Below, piece after piece: positions 43,772-55,278 of a DNA stretch of 64,000 nt. Both the position numbers and the translations under genes were made by a program. The notes beneath the pieces were generated by a model. The model was given only the letters and a program-made list of their open reading frames with translations. It was not told where the DNA came from and did not search any database. Position 1 is the stretch's first letter. The number at the start of each line of letters is the position of its first letter. This stretch comes from Candidatus Gallimonas faecium (GTDB lineage Bacteria > Bacillota > Clostridia > Christensenellales > Borkfalkiaceae): positions 18,113 to 82,112 of the forward strand of contig CAJFHA010000004.1 in NCBI GenBank assembly GCA_904378075.1. Direction: 5' to 3'.

Positions 43772-44305
43772 TTACTCGGAAACCAATGTATTATCGATCA
43801 GCGTACCATTTCCGCCATACGCAGGCGTTGTGCTGCCATCAAAAATTCCGCCGTTCACAATGACCGTATCTGAACTCTGCGCCGTGTAGATATGAGGCTG
43901 ATTCCCGCTCCGGGTAAATGTACCGCTTTCAATCGTACAAGTGCTATTGCATTCCAAATAAACACAATACCGATTCTGCGCCGTGATCGTCACATTTCGA
44001 AGAGTAGCCGTCGAATTTCCTACAACCTGTACCCCTCCCCTCAACGTAACATTGTCGATCAATACATTTTTGGCACCCGATGTGACATAAAGCGGATAGG
44101 CACTATTTTCATAACTGTCTTGCTGGACGATACCGTTCTTCAGCGTGATCCCGTTCGCAGCCAATCCAAAGACGCTCCCATAAACACTGATTCCGCTTCC
44201 GATCGGTTCAACCGTTACGGTATGTCCGCCCAAATCGATCGTTACATCCGGAACAGTGATATAAGTATCAACCTTACTTTTTGAATGAAAGCTGATCATC
44301 GACAC
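43772..44305 (-). CDS. Signal-less right-handed beta-helix module, probably the detached C-terminus of the upstream giant protein
   Basis: 177 aa: VTIDLGGHTVTV, NVLIDNVTLRGG, ATLRNVTITAQN, TCTIESGTFT, TVIVNGGIFDG turns. No signal peptide or SD. GTG/ATG starts (44305/44299) lie inside the upstream gene, in the +1 frame. Confidence 0.6.
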   Translation of the reverse strand: MSMISFHSKSKVDTYITVPDVTIDLGGHTVTVEPIGSGISVYGSVFGLAANGITLKNGIVQQDSYENSAYPLYVTSGAKNVLIDNVTLRGGVQVVGNSTATLRNVTITAQNRYCVYLECNSTCTIESGTFTRSGNQPHIYTAQSSDTVIVNGGIFDGSTTPAYGGNGTLIDNTLVSE

Positions 44306-47300
44306 GCGCGATCTTCTGCTCTGCGTCCTCTGTGTTCGTATAATTTACACCCACAAAAAAGACTTGGGAATCGTTGTTATACGCAAACAGATCTTTGCAA
44401 GCGCCGTTGACCGTGATCCGATCTTCCGTTGTCGTGGAAATATTGTAGACGATCAGCGCGCCGCGCTTAAGCGTGCTGCCTTCGGGGACGGGAATTTCAG
44501 CAGGCTTATCATTGCTCATCCATACCTGCAGATTACCGACGATGCCCGCGGCAAAGGTCTCCCCCTGAATGCGTTCCGCTTCGTTCAGACAGTTTTGTAC
44601 AAGACCTGCATCATACAGCGTACCGACGATCCCGCCGCCGTCGTTCCCGCCGTCGATCGTGCCGCTGTTGCTGCACCCGATGACTTGGATCGGCGCCTTT
44701 GTCTGATAATCGGCGACCGCGCCGCTATAACGGATCCACCCGACGATCCCGCCCGTTCCGTACGCCGCCGTGTTTGTATTGACGATATTCGCCGTGTTCA
44801 CACAGTCTGTAACGGCGCCGTAATTCTGCTGTTCGCCGACGATCCCGCCGATCGACGCGCCATTGCCCGCCACCGCTCCGCTGTTGGTACAATCCGAAAC
44901 GTATGCAGAGCTGAGTCCGACGATTCCGCCCGCCCCCATACAGGCAGCCGTGACCGTCCCCGTATTCGTGCAGTTCGTGATATGCATTGCCTGCGATTCA
45001 TCCGCATAAATGCCGGTATAGTACGCCGCACCGACGATTCCGCCGACATTGCCGCTGGTTACGCTTGTTGCCGTAATCGACGCATGGTTGTTACAATTTT
45101 CGATCGTACCCGAGACGGTCATTCTGCCGACGATCCCGCCGTTCCCGCGCACCGCCGTCACGCTTCCGCTTTCTACCGTAACGCCGGACACCGTCGCGCC
45201 GTTGATCATCAGTCCCGCGACAGCCCCCACGCATTCGCCATCCGTAACGTTGACAGACACATTTGCAAGCGTCAGATCTTTCACGACGCCGCCGTTCAGT
45301 ACGCCGATCAAGCCAAAAGCATTGTCATCCCCGTATGCGCCGCTGAATGTCAGATTGGAAACGGTCTTTCCGTTTCCGTCGAATGTACCGCTGAACGACT
45401 TTCCGCCTTCTGCAAGCCCGCTGCCGCTGCGCATTCCCTGCCCGATGGGCGTCCAGGAAATGCCGGACAGATTGATGTCGGCTTCCAGAACAATATCGCA
45501 GACAATGTTCCCGCTCACCTTACCGAGATCGGCAAGCGCTGCCGCCGTCCAGACGTGCAGGACATCGTTCCGCCCGACGTCGCCAAGATCGCCCGTAAAA
45601 TCAGACTTCTCGTCTCCGCCGAGGAAATGAACCCCTTCGTACCAGTCGCATTCCGCGTCTTCCCTGAACAAACGATTGATGGAATAGACGTCCGTTCCGA
45701 TCGCAAAAATTTCATACCCGCTTTCATTTTCGATCGTCACATCCTGCGCGATTCTGCCGTCTTCCAACGCCCAATTGGAATTCGTGCTCTTTGTTGCCCA
45801 GTCATAGTAGGATACTGGGAATTCTCCCTTACATACAAGCTGCAAGCCTGCTCCGAGCGTTACGTTCAGCGCGTTTGTCGCGTCGACTTCCGCGTAGTCT
45901 CCTTGACTGGGGTTGACTCCGTACCCGTGAGAATGCAGCGTGACCGCAGAACCGGAAGGATTGATCCCGTTTGCAGGACGCGTACCGAGTTCTGCTTCCC
46001 CGTTGCATTCGATCGTTCCGCCGATCAGATTCAGCGTTCCCATCTTGGCGTCGATCCCCGCATACAGGCCCTTCACATAGGCGTTCCCTTCCATGGTAAG
46101 CGTTGCGGCATTGGGAACATAGATCCCCGTTCCGTCATGGCTGATCACGGAAGCATTCCCGGAAAGTTCGATCGTCATGGTGCCGTTCGTATTGTTGCCG
46201 TCCAGCCCGTAGAGGTATGCTTCGATTCCGGCATCATCCGTCATGACAACGCGCGCACCCGTTCCGAGGACCGGTCCGGACGGAACGACCATCTGCGCCG
46301 AATCCTTCATCAGGACGACCGATTTCGTGCGGACGCGCATGGCGTCTGCGCCCTCCTGATCCTGTTCCCCGTCGTTCAGAATATAATTCGTGTTCCCTGC
46401 AAAGGTGACTTCCGCCGCCTGCTCGGCAAGCATCCCGCAAATCTGATAGGACGCCGCATTGGAAAAGTCAATGGAGATCTCGCAGTCCGTAAACGTGACC
46501 TGAGCACCGTTGAAGTGCATCGCCTGCGACTGCGGCGTCTCATCATTTACGGCATCGTTGTCATAGTCGATATCGAAAGAAGTATTTTCAAATACGGCAC
46601 CCCCTCCCGAAACAACGACTGCGCTCATGGCGGCAGCATCGGCAGAGGCAACAAGCCCGTTTGCCCGGACGGACGAATCTGTCATGATAAGGGTGGCGCC
46701 CTGAACATTGAGCGCCGTTTTACCGGTCGCCTGTACAGCCACGTTTTCCAATGCGACCTGTCCCTGCGAACGCGTACGTGCCGCGAGGCCGTTCTGTGCC
46801 CCGACCGTCACGCCGTTTTCAATGGTCAGATTCCGCAGGGTGACATTCTGAGGAAGAGCGAGCGGCGCATCGTCGGACGTGGTAAGCAGCGCATCCCCGT
46901 ATCCTTCTATCACGACCGATTTCCCGGAAAGCGCATCGAAAGCATTGGCATCCAATTCATGCACGCCGTCCCCTGCAGAAAGAACGACTTCCGCTTCTTC
47001 GCTCTCCGCAGCCGCTTCGATCGCCTCGGTCAGCGTTCCGTAATCATTTCCGTCAAAATTGGCATTCCCCGTGAAGGCATTCGCCTGAACGGCGCGCACG
47101 ACAAGGGTGATCTCGCTGTTGACGCTCGACGCAGCGCCCCATGCAAGACCGATATGGAAGGAAAGTTCCGCGATCTGCCCCTGCTCTGTTCCCGCCGTCA
47201 CCCAGCCGCCGACGCCTTCGGTCTGCGTCAGGAAATAAGAAGAACCCGTGCCGTTCATGACGCCGCCGCCGAAGGTATAGGCGGAAGCGTTGCCGTCCAG

Positions 47301-47702
47301 CGAGAGATAGGCGACATACTTCATGGCGACCGTACTCGCGTTCTCAACGGTGAGCGTGAAATCGGCGGTCGTGCCCTGCGCAAGCGTCATGGTGATCTGC
47401 TCCCCGTTGACCGCCGCGCTGCCGTAGCCGTTTTCAAGCGTGATCGCGTTCTCCGAAGCGTTGCCGTCGCCCTGCGCGTTATCCGCAACGGACGTTGCGT
47501 CCGAATCCGCTTCCCCGCGGTAAGACATGGAATCGAGCGTCAGTGCGGACGAAATGCTGATCTCGCCGCTATGCACGTTGAAAGAATATTCCTGCGAGCT
47601 TGTAAACGCCGCAACCGTTGCGCCGACAATGAGCGCGCCGCAGCACCCGATGGTGAGCGCGGACATGACGATCGCTTTCGTTTTCCCCGTCTTCCCTTTC
47701 AT
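44274..47702 (-). CDS. Giant secreted protein B: TasA/camelysin-like N-domain plus beta-helix and GLUG-like repeats
   Basis: Track ORF 44274..47816; start MKGKTGKTKAIVMSALTIGCCGALIVGATVAAFTSSQEY at 47702 behind GAGGAG. The N-domain ends at VRAVQANAFTG. The C-terminal third has about seven G-G-I-V-G repeats. Confidence 0.8.
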   Translation of the reverse strand: MKGKTGKTKAIVMSALTIGCCGALIVGATVAAFTSSQEYSFNVHSGEISISSALTLDSMSYRGEADSDATSVADNAQGDGNASENAITLENGYGSAAVNGEQITMTLAQGTTADFTLTVENASTVAMKYVAYLSLDGNASAYTFGGGVMNGTGSSYFLTQTEGVGGWVTAGTEQGQIAELSFHIGLAWGAASSVNSEITLVVRAVQANAFTGNANFDGNDYGTLTEAIEAAAESEEAEVVLSAGDGVHELDANAFDALSGKSVVIEGYGDALLTTSDDAPLALPQNVTLRNLTIENGVTVGAQNGLAARTRSQGQVALENVAVQATGKTALNVQGATLIMTDSSVRANGLVASADAAAMSAVVVSGGGAVFENTSFDIDYDNDAVNDETPQSQAMHFNGAQVTFTDCEISIDFSNAASYQICGMLAEQAAEVTFAGNTNYILNDGEQDQEGADAMRVRTKSVVLMKDSAQMVVPSGPVLGTGARVVMTDDAGIEAYLYGLDGNNTNGTMTIELSGNASVISHDGTGIYVPNAATLTMEGNAYVKGLYAGIDAKMGTLNLIGGTIECNGEAELGTRPANGINPSGSAVTLHSHGYGVNPSQGDYAEVDATNALNVTLGAGLQLVCKGEFPVSYYDWATKSTNSNWALEDGRIAQDVTIENESGYEIFAIGTDVYSINRLFREDAECDWYEGVHFLGGDEKSDFTGDLGDVGRNDVLHVWTAAALADLGKVSGNIVCDIVLEADINLSGISWTPIGQGMRSGSGLAEGGKSFSGTFDGNGKTVSNLTFSGAYGDDNAFGLIGVLNGGVVKDLTLANVSVNVTDGECVGAVAGLMINGATVSGVTVESGSVTAVRGNGGIVGRMTVSGTIENCNNHASITATSVTSGNVGGIVGAAYYTGIYADESQAMHITNCTNTGTVTAACMGAGGIVGLSSAYVSDCTNSGAVAGNGASIGGIVGEQQNYGAVTDCVNTANIVNTNTAAYGTGGIVGWIRYSGAVADYQTKAPIQVIGCSNSGTIDGGNDGGGIVGTLYDAGLVQNCLNEAERIQGETFAAGIVGNLQVWMSNDKPAEIPVPEGSTLKRGALIVYNISTTTEDRITVNGACKDLFAYNNDSQVFFVGVNYTNTEDAEQKIARVDDQLSFKK

Positions 47703-47926
47703 ATAGCTCTTCTCCTCACTTGAATTTTGCTTTGGGCGGAACAGAGCGCTCCTGCGCGCCCCTTCCCGATCTGCCCGTCCGCGGCTTTCCGCGGACGGGA
47801 TTTTGTTTTGAACCATGCTCCCCGATCGGGCTCCCGCAAAAAGACAAAGTATTTCTGCGGGACAGCATCGGGTTTCACGCCCCGATTGGGGGCGTCGCCT
47901 TCGGCTCCTTTGAATGGCGCAAAGCC

Positions 47927-50900
47927 TTACGCCTGTTCTTCGGAAGCGGGAACGACCTGCCAGCCGCCTTCGACTTCAGACAGTTCGAATCCTTCCGCAA
48001 GGTACGCCTTGACAAAATCGGAAGTAAACGTGCCGCCTGCGATCTCAATGGCGGGAGCATCCGCCGCAACGGTGAATCTGAGCGTAACGTCAAACGTACC
48101 CGTGCATCCGGCTTCGACCTTCCAGACCGTCTTGGACTGCCAGCCTTCCCACATATTCTGAGCGCCGTATTCGATCTTTCCGGAAACTTTGCCCGTGAAA
48201 TCGGACGCAAAGACCACGGAAACACCGTCTTCATAAGTCGTGCTCATTCCATACCAAAGGTCAAAAGCAACCCCTGCCGGATTCGTACTGCTTGCGATGA
48301 TCTGCGTGTTGCCCTTGATCGTCGTCGTGCCGCAGTTGCTGGAAACAACATACTGCATATTCGGATCATCGGATGCATCCAGCACCATGTCCTGCAACGT
48401 CAGATCATTGTACTTCTGAATGAGGATATATCCCTCCGTAGCCTCGCTCTTGACCGAACCGTTCATCATGACAACGGTGGAGCCCTTCAGAAGCTGGAAC
48501 AAATTGGTCTCCGTACCCGCAGAACCGACGGTGGGATCGACGCCAACAAACGTCTTGCCCGCGAAATCGATGACGATGTTCTGTCCCGCAGAAACCTTAA
48601 CGCCGCTGCCATAGACGGTATCCTCTGCGGCAATGAACGTGATCGTCTTCTGCGTGTTATCGGTGGGAACGTCGGCTACCGCATATCCGAGCGAGGAATA
48701 TGCCATGCTGTCCATCATAACGACCATGCCGGCAGCCGCCGCTTCCTCGGGCGTACCCACATAGTAGGTGCCGTCAACTTCCCATGCGACATAGCCTTCA
48801 CCAAGGAAGCTCTCGGCGGGATTTTCCGTTGTGCTGTTGGCGGGATTGTAGTTAACAAACGCGCCGCCCGTAACATTAAACGTCGATTGACTGTTGTCAA
48901 CTTTATTTAAAATCCACGTTCTATTATCATACGATCCGATTGCAGAGAAAGTACCGCCATGGATATTCGCCGTTGCCTTGTTGTCGATTTGAACCGCCGT
49001 CAGCCCACACACATATGTGCCACCCGTGATAGTGAGCGTAGGACTGGGATAAGCGGGTTGCGTAGAACCGAGTCTGAACAGGTAGCCGAGTTCAGAATCT
49101 TCGCTCTGTATCATGCTGCCGTTGCCAATCGTAAATACAACATTGTTGTAAATATCGATCAAGCCGTCCTGATTGAAATACATGGTATAGCCGTTCAAAT
49201 CAATGTTGACCGTGCGCTTCGGCATAAGCGGTCCCTGAAAGCGCAAGGTATCGTTGACCGTGATGTCGTTGCCGAGCGTAAGATCCAAATTGGAAGTAAT
49301 GGTGAGGGGCTGCATCAGAAGCACTTCAATGCCGGCTTTCGTAAATTCACTGAGCTGTGCAAGCGTATATGCGTATGCAACCGTATCTTTGAACGTGCCG
49401 CCCGTGATCTTATAGGTCACTTTCTCGGCAATCGAATAATCGCCGACTGTTCGGACAAACCCGACAAGGTCGCCCTCGAACGTACCGCCCGTGATCGTCG
49501 TCAGACCGTCGCCGATCATTTCCTGATTGTAACCACTCAAAACAGCCATGGGACTGCCGACAAATTCACCGCCGGAAATTGTAAGCACATCCCAATTCAA
49601 AACGGATGCCTGCGCAGCGTTTTCGAATCTGCCGCCCAGAATGGTCAGCTCGCACATACCGTCGTTCTTAACAACATTCAGACCGCCGCGGAACGTACCG
49701 CCCGTGATCGTAAGAGACGCATTTCCACTCAAATCCTGGGGACCGGAATTGTCGATCAGGCTGCTATAGCCGTCTTTCATAACGATCAGTCCGTCGTTCA
49801 GCGTTGCCGTGCCATGGTTGTAGAAGGTATACCAGCTGTTGCCGTTGCCGTTGCCGCCATCAGGATCGTAAGTACCGGCAGCCTTACTTCTGGTCAACGT
49901 ACCGCCGTTCATAGTAAACACGCCGCTTGGATTGTTGTAGACAGCCGCCGTTCCATGCGCCAAAGCATCGACCACGGTGCCCTCTTCGATCGTAAGCGTA
50001 CCGTTGTTGATAACGGTATGATCGACTCCCGCTTTACCGCCGTCCGACGTGAGCGCCGTACCGGAAATCGTTGCCTCTGCGCCCGCACCTACTGTCAGCG
50101 CCGTGCCGTTTTGATTGACGACCTTGCTGTTGGAAAGCGTAAGCGTGCCGCCATTGAGGGTGATTGCACCGTTTTCCACCATGGAATTGACGATGGTGAC
50201 GTTTGCGTTGGTCGCCGTGACGGAGCCCTTGAAGGTGACGCCGTCGAACATTGCCGTGCCGCCCTCGGCCTCGGTCGCCGCGTTGGAAAACGCCATGAGC
50301 GACATGGTGGAGATGCCTGCGATCTGATCGTCGGAGATGGTCACGCTGCCGTTGATGGTCGCGTCCTCGATGCTCGCGTTGGAGGTAGCCACGACGTTGC
50401 CTTCGACGGTGACGTCTTTGAGCGTGACGTTTGCGGGGATGTAAAGCGTGCCGTTATCCGCAGCCTCGATGGTGGTGAGCGATTCGCCCGCACCGACAAC
50501 GGCAAGCGGCTTGTCGCCGAGCTGCGCAGCTTCTTCCTGCGTCAGCCAGGTCGCGTTCACGTTTCTGCCGAGGGAGACCGTCTCGTTATTGGCCGCCTGC
50601 ACCATGGCTTCGGCAAGTGTTTCGTACGTCGTATCGCCCACGGAAATGGTGCCCGTGTAAGCGTTCGCCTGCAGCGCTTCCAGAACGACCGTCATGGAAA
50701 CGGACTGCGGCTCGGTCACGCCCTCGCCTTCGGCGGGATCGAACACTTCAAGCGCGCTCCAGGGAAGGCTGATCTCGAACGCGAGCGTCGCGTCCTCTTC
50801 GGGGATCGCCTGCCCCGCTTCCACCGTCTGCCAGTCGAGCAGGGAGACTTCGTCGTCCTCCAGCGACTTGTTCACGCCGTCCACGGAGAACTGAAGTGCC

Positions 50901-51310
50901 TGACGAAGTTCGCTGCCGCCCTCGCTTACAAGAACGGTGACGGAATACTTCATGTCCACCGCGCTTGCGTTGGTGACGGCAAGTTCGAATGCCGCGCCGT
51001 CGCCGAGGGACATGTTGTTGATCGTGATATTGCTGCCGTCCGTAATGGCAACCGTGCCGCCCTGCGGAAGGGTTGCCGTGTTGTCGATGACCGTCGCTTC
51101 TTCGCGTTCGTTCGTGGACTGCCCCTGCGACCACGCCTGCGTCAGAGTAAGCTCGCCCTGCACGTCGATCTTGCCCGTGTTGACGCCGATCTGGTACTCG
51201 CGTCTCGAGGTGAACAGCGCGAACGTCGCGCCCAAGATCACCGCAAGGCACATGACCACAACGAGCACGGAAAGAAGGATAGCTCTGCTTTTCGTCTGTT
51301 TGCTTTGCAT
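47927..51310 (-). CDS. Giant secreted protein A: TasA/camelysin-like N-domain plus ~900-aa beta-helix passenger
   Basis: 1127 aa: MQSKQTKSRAILLSVLVVVMCLAVILGATFALFTSRREY...LEALQANAYTG. This is followed by repeated NGGTLT / ITGGTF / NIDLNGYT turns. GAGGAG RBS. Confidence 0.8.
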   Translation of the reverse strand: MQSKQTKSRAILLSVLVVVMCLAVILGATFALFTSRREYQIGVNTGKIDVQGELTLTQAWSQGQSTNEREEATVIDNTATLPQGGTVAITDGSNITINNMSLGDGAAFELAVTNASAVDMKYSVTVLVSEGGSELRQALQFSVDGVNKSLEDDEVSLLDWQTVEAGQAIPEEDATLAFEISLPWSALEVFDPAEGEGVTEPQSVSMTVVLEALQANAYTGTISVGDTTYETLAEAMVQAANNETVSLGRNVNATWLTQEEAAQLGDKPLAVVGAGESLTTIEAADNGTLYIPANVTLKDVTVEGNVVATSNASIEDATINGSVTISDDQIAGISTMSLMAFSNAATEAEGGTAMFDGVTFKGSVTATNANVTIVNSMVENGAITLNGGTLTLSNSKVVNQNGTALTVGAGAEATISGTALTSDGGKAGVDHTVINNGTLTIEEGTVVDALAHGTAAVYNNPSGVFTMNGGTLTRSKAAGTYDPDGGNGNGNSWYTFYNHGTATLNDGLIVMKDGYSSLIDNSGPQDLSGNASLTITGGTFRGGLNVVKNDGMCELTILGGRFENAAQASVLNWDVLTISGGEFVGSPMAVLSGYNQEMIGDGLTTITGGTFEGDLVGFVRTVGDYSIAEKVTYKITGGTFKDTVAYAYTLAQLSEFTKAGIEVLLMQPLTITSNLDLTLGNDITVNDTLRFQGPLMPKRTVNIDLNGYTMYFNQDGLIDIYNNVVFTIGNGSMIQSEDSELGYLFRLGSTQPAYPSPTLTITGGTYVCGLTAVQIDNKATANIHGGTFSAIGSYDNRTWILNKVDNSQSTFNVTGGAFVNYNPANSTTENPAESFLGEGYVAWEVDGTYYVGTPEEAAAAGMVVMMDSMAYSSLGYAVADVPTDNTQKTITFIAAEDTVYGSGVKVSAGQNIVIDFAGKTFVGVDPTVGSAGTETNLFQLLKGSTVVMMNGSVKSEATEGYILIQKYNDLTLQDMVLDASDDPNMQYVVSSNCGTTTIKGNTQIIASSTNPAGVAFDLWYGMSTTYEDGVSVVFASDFTGKVSGKIEYGAQNMWEGWQSKTVWKVEAGCTGTFDVTLRFTVAADAPAIEIAGGTFTSDFVKAYLAEGFELSEVEGGWQVVPASEEQA

Positions 51311-51429: not shown

Positions 51430-52086
51430 TCAGTTCAGTCCGAGCGCCTCGTTCAGATCGGCGTCGGATGCGTTCGCCTGACCCGCATAGATCGTGAACT
51501 CGATGGAAGCGTTCGTGATGAAGTCCTCCGCCGCGCCGTCGTCCCCGAAGGTCTGTTCGGCGTCTTTATCGAGCTCCACGGTAATCTCGAGCGTGACGGA
51601 ACTTCCGGGCGCGATCTCCGTTTCCGCCCAGGTCCCGAACGAAAATGCGCCGCCGCCTTCCGCCGTGATCGCATAGTTCAAGCTGTCTTCCGCGCCTTCC
51701 GCGCCCGTGACGCTTGGCGTGTAGTCCACGCGGAACCGCGCGGCGGATTTACCCGTGTTGGTGATGGTGAGCGTGAACTCCGCCTTATCCCCCGGGACCA
51801 TCTGCGACAGCGAAATGCTGCCGTTCTGCCCGTCGATGGAGGCGCTGCCGCCCGTTGCGAAATTCAGGCTGCCCGTGGGCTGTGCGTCCGTGCTCTCGGG
51901 CGTCAGACTGTACAGCGTCAGGCTGTCCGTGTCAAACTCGGCGGCAATGTCCACGCTGCCCGTTGTGACGGTCACTTCGCGCTGTTTCTGCGTGCCGAAG
52001 AGCGCAAACGTGGCGCCGACGATGATCGCCGCGCACAGCAGGACGGTGAGTCCCGCCGTCAGCAAAGCCGTTCTCTTGCTTTTCAT
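51430..52086 (-). CDS. TasA/camelysin-like secreted fibre-subunit candidate (218 aa)
   Basis: N-terminus MKSKRTALLTAGLTVLLCAAIIVGATFALFGTQKQREVTVTTGSVDI, parallel to TasA GGGTWAAFND...ASGTLDL. Beta-rich body. Confidence 0.75.
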   Translation of the reverse strand: MKSKRTALLTAGLTVLLCAAIIVGATFALFGTQKQREVTVTTGSVDIAAEFDTDSLTLYSLTPESTDAQPTGSLNFATGGSASIDGQNGSISLSQMVPGDKAEFTLTITNTGKSAARFRVDYTPSVTGAEGAEDSLNYAITAEGGGAFSFGTWAETEIAPGSSVTLEITVELDKDAEQTFGDDGAAEDFITNASIEFTIYAGQANASDADLNEALGLN

Positions 52087-52132
52087 ATCCCTTTATCTCC
52101 TTATATGAAGATTTTTTTCTTATAACAAAGGC

Positions 52133-52795
52133 TCAGACCTTCTGCGTCGCCGTTACGGTGACGTTGAAAGAAAGGTCCGCGTTCATGATGGTCGCGCCCG
52201 TTCCGTCGTCGAGCACGTCCGATTCCAGAGGAAGTTCGACCTTCAGCAAAAAGGTCCGCGTTTCGTTTGCCGCGGAGACCGAACCGAGCGGGAGCGCGCC
52301 GCGCTCTACCATGCCCGCAAGCGTGGTGCCGGGATCGGTGAGCACGTTGCCCTCCGCGTCCGTGACCGTAACGAGCAGTTTGCCGGCAAGACGCTGTTCG
52401 GGAGAATTGTCCGCAGGCGTTTCGGCGTAAAAGAATGCGACCGAATAGTCGAACGCCACGCTGCCGCGGTTTTCGATCTCGAGCGTCGCTTCCTGCCAGA
52501 CGCCGGGAACGCTGTTGCCGCCGAACGTAAAGACGGTATCGTCCGGATCGTCCGTCTGCGCTTCGGTGAGGTCAACGCGCGCCGTATCGGTGGCGACCGC
52601 CTGCAGGACGCCGTTCTCATCCGCCGTGCGTCCCGTCAGATTGGTGCGCGCCAATCCGATCTCCAGCGTGCCCGCCTGCAGGTAATTGACGACCGTCGCC
52701 GAATCGGAAAACAGCGCGAAGGACGCCGTGACCAGAATGACGGCGCTCATCAGCGCGACGAGAACGGACATGACGATGGCTTTGGATTTGTTCAT
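52133..52795 (-). CDS. TasA/camelysin-like secreted fibre-subunit candidate (220 aa)
   Basis: N-terminus MNKSKAIVMSVLVALMSAVILVTASFALFSDSATVVNYLQAGTLEIGL, the closest match in the window to the TasA signal/N-terminal motif. Confidence 0.78.
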   Translation of the reverse strand: MNKSKAIVMSVLVALMSAVILVTASFALFSDSATVVNYLQAGTLEIGLARTNLTGRTADENGVLQAVATDTARVDLTEAQTDDPDDTVFTFGGNSVPGVWQEATLEIENRGSVAFDYSVAFFYAETPADNSPEQRLAGKLLVTVTDAEGNVLTDPGTTLAGMVERGALPLGSVSAANETRTFLLKVELPLESDVLDDGTGATIMNADLSFNVTVTATQKV

Positions 52796-52810: not shown

Positions 52811-53683
52811 TTATTCTTCGGCGGGCGGCGTCGCGGGCTGCGCGCTCTCTTCTTCCGCAGGCTGCTGCGCAGGCGGTTCTGCTTCCGATGCCTGCTGCTG
52901 CGCCGCGGCGGCTTCCTCCGCCGCCTTCTTTTCGGCTTCGCGCTTGAGCCTGCGCTGTTCGCGGCGGGCGGCTTTCTTTTCCTCCTCGCGGCGGGCGCGC
53001 TCCTCTGCGAAGTCGCTGTATGTAATATCGATGATGTTCTTGATATGGTCGATGGTCTCCGCCGATTCCACGCGCACGTCGATGGGCTTTTCCTTGATGT
53101 TCAGCCCCTCTTTGTCCGTGTAGGCGATGAAATCGTTGTTCTGCACGGTCAGGCGCGCCGTGATGCGGCCGCGGCGCAGCAGGATGCGGACGAGCAGCTT
53201 CTTTCCGTAATAGACGCTCGCGCTCCTGTCGTTGATGACTTTCTTTGCGCCCTCTTTGGCTTCGGCATACGCGACGATCTCGTCCACGCAACTCTTTTCG
53301 ATGGGCGAGAGCTGTTCGTACGCTTCGGGATAGGGCACCGTCTCGTTGCGGCGCAGAAGGACCATGCCCTCGGTATCGACGGGCTCCTCCTCCGGCTCTT
53401 CTTCAACCTCCGGCTCCTCAACGGGCGCGGGCGGTTCCTCGGTCGGTGCGGGCTGCGGTGCGGGCTCTTCGACCGGCTGCGGCACGGTACGGGAAGCGGC
53501 TTCGGCGATCGCCGCCTTATCCCCGACGCGCACAAGCACATACGCCGTATCGTCCACGACGACGACTCTGCCCGCATCCCCCTCTTTCTTCGCGCGCGCA
53601 AGCGAGACGATCAGCCAGACGACGAGCGCCAGAGCGACGACGCAAATGAGTACGACGCACACGATGAACAATGCTTGAGTCAT
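52811..53683 (-). CDS. Membrane-anchored protein of unknown function (TM, P/E-rich spacer, globular core, K/E/R-rich then A/Q/P/E-rich tail)
   Basis: 290 aa. ATGA overlap with the sipW stop. Composition is unlike an antisense shadow. Confidence 0.7.
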   Translation of the reverse strand: MTQALFIVCVVLICVVALALVVWLIVSLARAKKEGDAGRVVVVDDTAYVLVRVGDKAAIAEAASRTVPQPVEEPAPQPAPTEEPPAPVEEPEVEEEPEEEPVDTEGMVLLRRNETVPYPEAYEQLSPIEKSCVDEIVAYAEAKEGAKKVINDRSASVYYGKKLLVRILLRRGRITARLTVQNNDFIAYTDKEGLNIKEKPIDVRVESAETIDHIKNIIDITYSDFAEERARREEEKKAARREQRRLKREAEKKAAEEAAAAQQQASEAEPPAQQPAEEESAQPATPPAEE

Positions 53684-54887: not shown

Positions 54888-54999
54888 GAGCGATCTCCCG
54901 TATCGGAACGGTGGGAATCCCGGACATGGGTCCCGCCGTCAGGCGCGCCTCGCGCATATACGCGCGGAGCGTTTTTTTCTCCGACACTTTTACGCTTAT

Positions 55000-55030
55000 A
55001 TTATAACATACACCCCCCCCCGATTGTCAA
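55000..55030 (-). promoter_or_regulatory. Fibre-operon promoter, TTGACA-19 nt (contains G9)-TATAAT with TG extension
   Basis: Minus strand reads TTGACAATCGGGGGGGGGTGTATGTTATAAT. -35 at 55030-55025 and -10 at 55005-55000, about 113 nt upstream of the ATG at 54887. Confidence 0.6.
55013..55021. repeat. C9/G9 homopolymer
   Basis: Nine consecutive C on the plus strand. This agrees with the track translation ...TYTPPR (ACC CCC CCC CGA). It is the longest G/C run I noticed in the window. Confidence 0.9.
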
Positions 55031-55249
55031 CTATCATTCAATATTTTCAAGAGCGGCGGACGCGGACGCGTTTTGACCGAAATTGTCGCAAAATGAGCGG
55101 AACGCTCCGCGGAAACTGTAAAAATCCGGGGTTTTCCGGACACAAAAGAAAAAAATATCCGAAAAAATTTTCTTTCACACGTCGCGCACTTTTTACGACA
55201 CCGCCTGCGAAAGGCGCGCAAAGCACCCCCGGAGCATGCAAAAAAGCCT

Positions 55250-55278
55250 TTGCATTCGGGCGCGCTTTCTGCTATAAT
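55250..55278 (+). promoter_or_regulatory. Promoter, TTGCAT-17 nt-TATAAT, only 10 nt before the HD-protein ATG
   Basis: TTGCAT at 55250-55255 and TATAAT at 55273-55278, then AGAGGGCGTT and the ATG. Confidence 0.5.

Follow-up and report, generated by a model that had tools for sequence, protein, structure and literature searches.

The promoter of a putative SipW-dependent fibre operon carries a poly-G tract between its -35 and -10 hexamers, and the length of this tract is hypervariable in natural populations of an uncultured gut Clostridia lineage. The analysis started from a 64-kb stretch of DNA (the window). Promoter architecture, its conservation among related species and the natural hypervariability of the tract are demonstrated by direct reading and by comparison with related contigs. 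We consider it fairly probable, judging from the position of the tract and from the way in which it varies, that it is a slipped-strand contingency tract that grades the strength of the fibre-operon promoter.

Promoter architecture and conservation

The elements of the promoter and the genes of the operon are listed in Table 1. Direct reading of the minus strand bore out, in coordinates and in wording, what the initial annotation had described at this site, namely TTGACA, TATAAT, a TGn extension and a 19-nt spacer with G9. The A/T-rich stretch 5' of the -35 hexamer is a candidate UP element and may possibly act as such.

Table 1. Features of the fibre-operon promoter and of the operon (window positions unless a contig is given)
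Feature	Position	Strand	Basis or remark
A/T-rich stretch 5' of the -35	55031..55055	(-)	A/T-rich at the equivalent place in five species
-35 hexamer TTGACA	55025..55030	(-)	direct reading; unchanged in all five related species
Promoter spacer ATCGGGGGGGGGTGTATGT, 19 nt	55006..55024	(-)	direct reading
Poly-G tract G9 in spacer (plus-strand C9)	55013..55021	(-)	direct reading; G8 to G10 in the population
TGn extended -10 motif (TGT), last three spacer bases	55006..55008	(-)	TG conserved in five species
-10 hexamer TATAAT	55000..55005	(-)	direct reading; unchanged in all five species
Predicted 5' leader	54888..54994	(-)	start inferred at about 54993-54995 from the position of the -10 hexamer
Ribosome-binding site GGGAGA	54894..54899	(-)	ACGGGAGA conserved in five species
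First operon gene, 153-aa protein with N-terminal hydrophobic segment	54426..54887	(-)	no known family
SipW-type signal peptidase I, 249 aa	53680..54429	(-)	NCBIfam TIGR02228, 67.7 bits (cut-off 51.85)
Membrane-anchored protein, 290 aa, Pro/Glu/Ala-rich	52811..53683	(-)	translation; in-frame repeat indels between strains
220-aa protein, SipW-dependent signal peptide, TasA/camelysin-like N-terminus	52133..52795	(-)	TIGR04088 cognate_SipW, 23 bits (cut-off 19)
218-aa TasA-like beta-sandwich subunit (putative)	51430..52086	(-)	weak, below-cut-off TasA and camelysin matches
1127-aa secreted protein, SipW-type N-terminal signal, N-terminus ...GATFALFTS	47927..51310	(-)	no family matches
1180-aa secreted protein, SipW-type signal and GLUG repeats	44274..47816	(-)	GLUG, 23.6 bits (cut-off 20.5)
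XRE regulator gene and promoter, distant relative	L009 3033-3386, promoter 3423		
XRE regulator gene and promoter, distant relative	L010 3333-3671, promoter 3707		

Six perfect (12/12) sigma-A promoters are present in the window when both strands and spacers of 15-21 nt are considered, compared with about 0.009 expected from base composition. Five of them (4077+, 12570+, 26121+, 42959+ and 5895-) have a spacer of 17 nt, in agreement with the earlier statement that the other consensus-like promoters are spaced in this way, and the fibre-operon promoter alone has 19 nt. The sites that match the consensus at 11 of 12 positions have a 17-nt spacer in four of five cases. The organism thus uses the canonical consensus and spacing, to which the fibre-operon promoter is the exception. 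The density of full-consensus TTGACA-17-TATAAT promoters, five besides the fibre-operon one in 64 kb, is high in itself. A properly spaced alternative that uses the same -10 was rejected since the hexamer that a 17-nt spacer would place at -35 is GACAAT, in which only one of six positions agrees with the -35 consensus. Another alternative that emerged from the promoter scan, TTGAAA-16-GACAAT, is weak.

The G9 tract is also the only G/C homopolymer of more than 6 nt in the window. Runs of four, five and six G or C occur 270, 57 and 9 times, respectively, runs of seven or eight are absent and a run of nine occurs once. About 1.6 runs of this kind would be expected by a plain base-frequency model and about 0.05 by the genome's own steep decay of run lengths.

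Orthologous loci of the window species and of four further species were compared, and the five intergenic regions were aligned. The protein encoded by the first operon gene is 71%, 55% and 54% identical to that of the window in three of the further species; the fourth, assessed by SipW, shows 65% identity. Candidatus Gallimonas faecavium, of an uncultured chicken-gut Clostridia genus, is the closest named relative (SipW identity 66%), and the exact first-gene protein is on record as a protein of a chicken-derived MAG. Invariant stretches longer than a few bases are confined in the alignment to TTGACA, the core of the G-run, TG, TATAAT and the ribosome-binding site ACGGGAGA; the remainder of the intergenic regions has diverged. 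Because of this phylogenetic footprint over five species it is very likely that the site at 55000-55030 is the actual promoter of the operon, and its first assignment as the fibre-operon promoter is thereby upheld.

The leader predicted to follow this promoter is about 80-210 nt long. Its calculated fold (-44.6 kcal/mol, z = -2.2) is of mild stability only, and a search for a riboswitch or known RNA in the leader gave no credible Rfam match at permissive thresholds. A second G-run is present in the predicted leader of the sister species (71% identity), about 17 nt downstream of the -10, with the sequence ...AAAATRA-G6 to G9-TCTGCG (L012, L023-L032, L043-L057). This run also varies between contigs, even between two that are separated by 0 SNPs (G8 in L024, G7 in L026), and some contigs break there.

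Variation of the tract in natural populations

Searches for exact matches to allelic forms of the first-gene protein yielded many metagenome contigs, which come from independent samples and different assemblers. An exact DNA-pattern scan gave no match in the GTDB genomes and a single contig in the JGI metagenomes. Tract variation was determined between samples, by comparison across assembled contigs. Two contigs, L022 and L063, were left out of the counts as chimeras with a Nextera adapter at the tract; in these public metagenome contigs the adapter is fused straight onto the G tract (L022 1-56 and L063 1-27).

Table 2. Tract and spacer lengths in the compared species (number of contigs in brackets)
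Species	Contigs	Tract	Spacer (nt)
Window species (complete promoter; window counted)	25	G8 (3), G9 (13), G10 (9)	18 (5), 19 (10), 20 (9), 21 (1)
Sister species, 71% identity	19	G7 (5), G8 (1), G9 (11), G10 (2)	17 (5), 18 (3), 19 (9), 20 (2)
Ca. Gallimonas faecavium	7	G6 (7)	19 (7)
Species of L008	1	G6	19
Species of L053	1	G6	19

The counts in Table 2 show that the tract is not invariant across strains; invariance was what the initial annotation had named as a finding that would speak against its proposal: G8 to G10 were found in 25 contigs of the window species and G7 to G10 in 19 contigs of the sister species. The run is interrupted by substitutions in the three species that have G6, and their spacer is still 19 nt long; in Ca. 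Gallimonas faecavium the interrupted G6 is invariant in 7/7 contigs.

Change of tract length outpaces point mutation and is homoplastic. Over 8.08 kb, contig L001/L005 shows 0 mismatches to the window and the sole gap is one G in the tract, and L003 (G10) and L006 (G9) are separated by 0 SNPs in 1.7 kb. At least 10 changes of spacer length are required on a 17-tip tree of the window species and at least five on a 15-tip tree of the sister species. The 14 other homopolymers of at least 5 nt within the surrounding 1.84 kb are constant across contigs with one exception in one contig. The runs in this region include a G6 (constant in 24/24 contigs), a T7 (21/21) and an A7 (23/24, with A6 in one contig); the same genomes have no invariant G9-G10 tract that could serve as a matched control. 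The tract calls are moreover consistent within lineages: the five G7 contigs of the sister species share a linked spacer haplotype with GCA before the run (the flanks were seen to be identical in three of them), and three contigs of one allele lineage all have G9, which argues against random assembly noise.

Many contigs start or end at tracts (L021, L067, L068, L048-L052 and L057). Such breaks are expected from mixed tract lengths in a sample, and low read quality after poly-G could also cause them. A different kind of change was noticed in L038 (around 981-1010) and also in L021, where the sequence upstream of the -35 has been swapped exactly at the promoter in some strains. In the new context, another promoter-like sequence with G7, TTGACGGGGGGGTAACATGGTACACT, lies in degenerate form about 75 nt upstream, which suggests recombination between G-run promoters.

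Proposed mechanism and alternative explanations

We propose that a sigma-A promoter with a perfect -35, a TGn extension and a perfect -10 drives the SipW-dependent fibre/adhesin operon and that its poly-G tract presumably gains or loses single G's by slipped-strand mispairing at replication. Each such step would displace the -35 against the -10 by 1 nt and by about 34 degrees. Cells and strains with G8, G9 and G10 would then have spacers of 18, 19 and 20 nt and would differ in transcription of the operon, presumably with more transcription from the shorter spacer, and the predicted order of strength is 18 nt > 19 nt > 20 or 21 nt. The outcome would be a heritable and graded variation of a surface structure that is presumably reversible within a clone. 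Slippage is favoured because the tract changes in steps of one G, because G6 is stable and runs of G7 or more vary, because the run is positioned in a -35-dependent spacer and because the target is a surface structure. The effect of tract length on expression is deduced from spacing rules and from TP0126 of Treponema pallidum and porA of Neisseria meningitidis. An extended -10 of the TGn type may lower the dependence of a promoter on the spacing of the -35, and with TGn present here tract length could have little effect.

Both variable species have 19 nt as their most frequent spacer length, and 19 nt is the sole state seen in the three species with an interrupted G6; it is apparently the usual and ancestral one. 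Since 19 nt is fixed in species that are unable to vary the run, the operon must ordinarily function with 19 nt between the two hexamers, and selection is evidently not for optimal spacing because the 19-nt spacing is kept where the run cannot slip. The 17-nt (G7) allele is absent among the 25 contigs of the window species, in which the spacer ranges from 18 to 21 nt. The initial annotation had taken G9 for a captured weak or OFF configuration and, by implication, G7 for the ON state. This part of its proposal is not supported, given the modal 19-nt spacer, the sole state of the G6 species and the lack of a 17-nt allele among the 25 contigs. Its idea of a phase-variable promoter agrees with the hypervariable tract, and it is the ON/OFF framing that lacks support: graded tuning around an over-long spacer fits better than an ON/OFF switch that was caught OFF. 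The promoter looks over-spaced while its -35, TGn, -10 and A/T-rich upstream stretch match the consensus, and the tract appears to vary around this set-point.

The changes in length could be real and nevertheless silent, if TGn, possibly together with the UP-like element, allows transcription nearly independently of the -35, so that the variation is a neutral by-product of a G-rich spacer. TGn is indeed conserved in five species, alleles of 18-21 nt coexist at high frequency in the window species with no obvious optimum and with 17 nt absent, and the leader G-run of the sister species drifts too, from G6 to G9. However, TTGACA is invariant over five species and its flanks are not, which indicates that the -35 is in use, and a spacer of exactly 19 nt where the run is too short to slip indicates that the spacing is constrained. 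Tract length moreover alters transcription in TP0126 and porA, which have the same layout (PMC7864442). We regard a silent polymorphism as unlikely.

The 19-nt spacing and the G-run could also together form the target of a MerR-like, DNA-distorting activator or of another spacer-binding factor, with the length variation as secondary noise. Spacers of promoters controlled by the MerR family are typically 19-20 bp long, which corresponds to the perfect hexamers with a 19-nt spacer found in five species, as opposed to 17 nt at the other perfect promoters of the window, and the spacer in the L008 species contains an ACAGG-N6-CCTGT dyad. No dyad is common to the five spacers, however, which share the G-run alone; spacers of 18, 20 and 21 nt, which are frequent among the alleles, would be ill-suited to a precisely phased activator site; and the operon has no adjoining regulator gene, its upstream neighbour being different between species. 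No MerR domain was found in about 25 neighbouring proteins that were scanned. The divergent neighbour is an HD phosphohydrolase, and the surrounding genes include one for an OmpR-type response regulator at a distance of about 7 kb. With no shared dyad and no neighbouring regulator, a MerR-type operator was rejected, and control of a long-spacer promoter by any such factor is in our opinion improbable.

That there is one true length and that G8, G9 and G10 are homopolymer errors of short-read assemblies is very improbable: Illumina accuracy drops in long G runs, several contigs break at the tract, two carry the adapter there, and the window and L001 are otherwise identical, but all three lengths were obtained from SPAdes, MEGAHIT-style, scaffolded ENA and Logan assemblies, the calls are reproducible within lineages with G7 travelling with linked SNPs in five contigs, runs of 8-10 nt are normally resolved by consensus assembly at the stated coverages, and the G6 and A7/T7 runs are stable in the same contigs.

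Comparison with known systems

Repeat-driven phase variation is textbook knowledge for Gram-negative and wall-less pathogens. Promoter-repeat switches include the poly-C tracts of fim2/fim3 in Bordetella, the poly-A tracts of vlp in Mycoplasma hyorhinis and the TA repeats of hifA/B in Haemophilus influenzae, which lie in or beside the -35/-10 spacer of genes for fimbriae or surface lipoproteins and switch their expression. These switches differ from a graded poly-G spacer tract in a gut commensal in that they use other repeat types and other hosts, all of them cultured pathogens, and that Bordetella also requires the activator BvgA.

Poly-G tracts at the same position are known as well. According to PMC7864442, a poly-G between -35 and -10 controls expression of porA in Neisseria meningitidis. 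Like the fibre-operon promoter, porA has a G homopolymer within a sigma-70-type spacer upstream of a gene for a surface protein, and slippage by 1 nt there changes the spacing and is described as leading to a graded 'volume control' (PMC7864442). However, porA is a single porin gene of a Gram-negative pathogen with tract lengths that bracket the 17-nt optimum, whereas the present case concerns a Clostridia gut commensal, a fibre operon of at least seven genes, a TGn extended -10 and a spacer centred at 19 nt. In Treponema pallidum, a poly-G is located between -35 and -10 of TP0126, which codes for an OmpW homologue, and transcription is optimal at a spacing of 17 nt; for tprE/G/J/L of the same species, up to eight G's permit transcription and longer tracts lower it (PMC7864442). 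The Treponema tracts have about 7-12 G, which is similar to 7-10 here. In TP0126, from a spirochaete pathogen, the effect was shown by GFP reporters, whereas the fibre-operon tract is known from sequence and the focal species is without a 17-nt allele.

With respect to its gene content, the operon resembles tapA-sipW-tasA of Bacillus subtilis: in both, a small gene comes first, a SipW signal peptidase is encoded and the TasA-like subunits bear signal peptides of the SipW type. Unlike the Bacillus operon, the focal one also encodes two secreted proteins that exceed 1100 aa. The Bacillus operon is under deterministic control by the repressors SinR/SinI and AbrB. Distant Clostridia relatives, with a SipW that is about 30% identical, have a divergent SinR-like XRE gene beside sipW and a perfect TTGACA-17-TATAAT promoter without a G-run (Table 1). 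The focal clade has no adjacent SinR-like XRE gene and has the promoter with the G-run spacer instead. An exchange of deterministic for stochastic control in the focal clade is speculation. It is possible, although we put this forward tentatively, that the Gallimonas-like clade swapped SinR-type repressor control for a genus-wide promoter with a G-run and a 19-nt spacer and that the run passed the slippage threshold in at least two species, which would have turned a fixed, deliberately sub-optimal promoter into one that sets the level of TasA-type fibres and giant adhesins heritably and reversibly. If so, the birth of a contingency locus would have been caught across sister species in metagenomes, and the species series, with a fixed G6 at one end, a variable G7-G10 at the other and always a spacer around 19 nt, offers a natural experiment on the origin of such loci.

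The mechanism class, promoter-spacer repeat switches, is known; new are the occurrence in uncultured gut Clostridia, the operon of the SipW/TasA type and the sister-species series from G6 to a variable run. We found no literature report of repeat-driven phase variation in gut Clostridia and no link in the literature between SipW/TasA loci, or Gallimonas, and repeat-mediated phase variation. If tract length tunes the operon, commensals of the chicken gut would stochastically diversify a major surface or biofilm structure, which would matter for colonisation, for the pressure exerted by immunity (IgA) and phages and for the handling of homopolymer differences in strain-level metagenomics.

The fibre operon and its surroundings

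The designation of the locus as a SipW-dependent secreted fibre/adhesin operon appears justified by the predicted proteins. Of its earlier description as a SipW/TasA-like fibre locus, the SipW part was retained, with a SipW peptidase and SipW-type signal peptides being recognised, and the TasA-like fold found weak support. The 249-aa peptidase matches the SipW model of Bacillus with E = 2.5e-25, which is under the equivalog cut-off of that model, and a Pfam search with this protein revealed no peptidase domain. Exact copies of the 153-aa protein encoded by the first gene are present in many metagenome contigs, and its homologues in the sister species are 54-71% identical.

The 220-aa protein has a weak Peptidase_M73 match. 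An AlphaFold model of the 218-aa protein, based on 19 homologues, has a mean pLDDT of 80. When it was compared with the PDB by Foldseek, the best hits included 7ueg (archaeal bundling pili), 8aur (TasA fibre) and 7pnb (a Sulfolobus filament), all with weak scores (E = 2e-3 to 2e-2, TM 0.3-0.4). A sequence search of the PDB with the small subunits revealed no match to a solved TasA structure. The label 'TasA homologue' for the 218-aa protein is weakly supported by this model. The 1127-aa and 1180-aa proteins, which have no family match apart from GLUG in the latter, may serve as adhesins at the fibre tip or be large substrates of SipW. A ...GATFALF... motif is common to the 218-, 1127- and 1180-aa proteins, and a small protein that matches Beta_helix is encoded downstream of the 1180-aa gene.

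Some further length differences were seen within the operon. In the Pro/Glu-rich region of the 290-aa gene, 18 bp are duplicated in L039, and L021, L038 and L040 differ by an indel of 3 bp; the same gene has a 7-bp duplication in L021 that would be frameshifting. A T7 run is located between the 220-aa and 218-aa genes at window position 52112-52118. The 218-aa gene is 1 nt nearer in L002/L003 than in L001/L004, corresponding to a 1-nt indel in or near the gap between these two genes.

The operon is flanked by housekeeping genes, with the divergent HD phosphohydrolase, NUDIX and ADH genes on one side and genes for a ZIP transporter, an SDR and pur functions on the other, and its upstream neighbour is not constant among species. 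In L003 (507-2694) and L006, the divergent HD gene is replaced by genes for a tyrosine integrase and a SNF2-type helicase, and the junction is located about 235 nt 5' of the -35, near window position 55260. The replacement in these two strains indicates that the operon adjoins a region of variable gene content.
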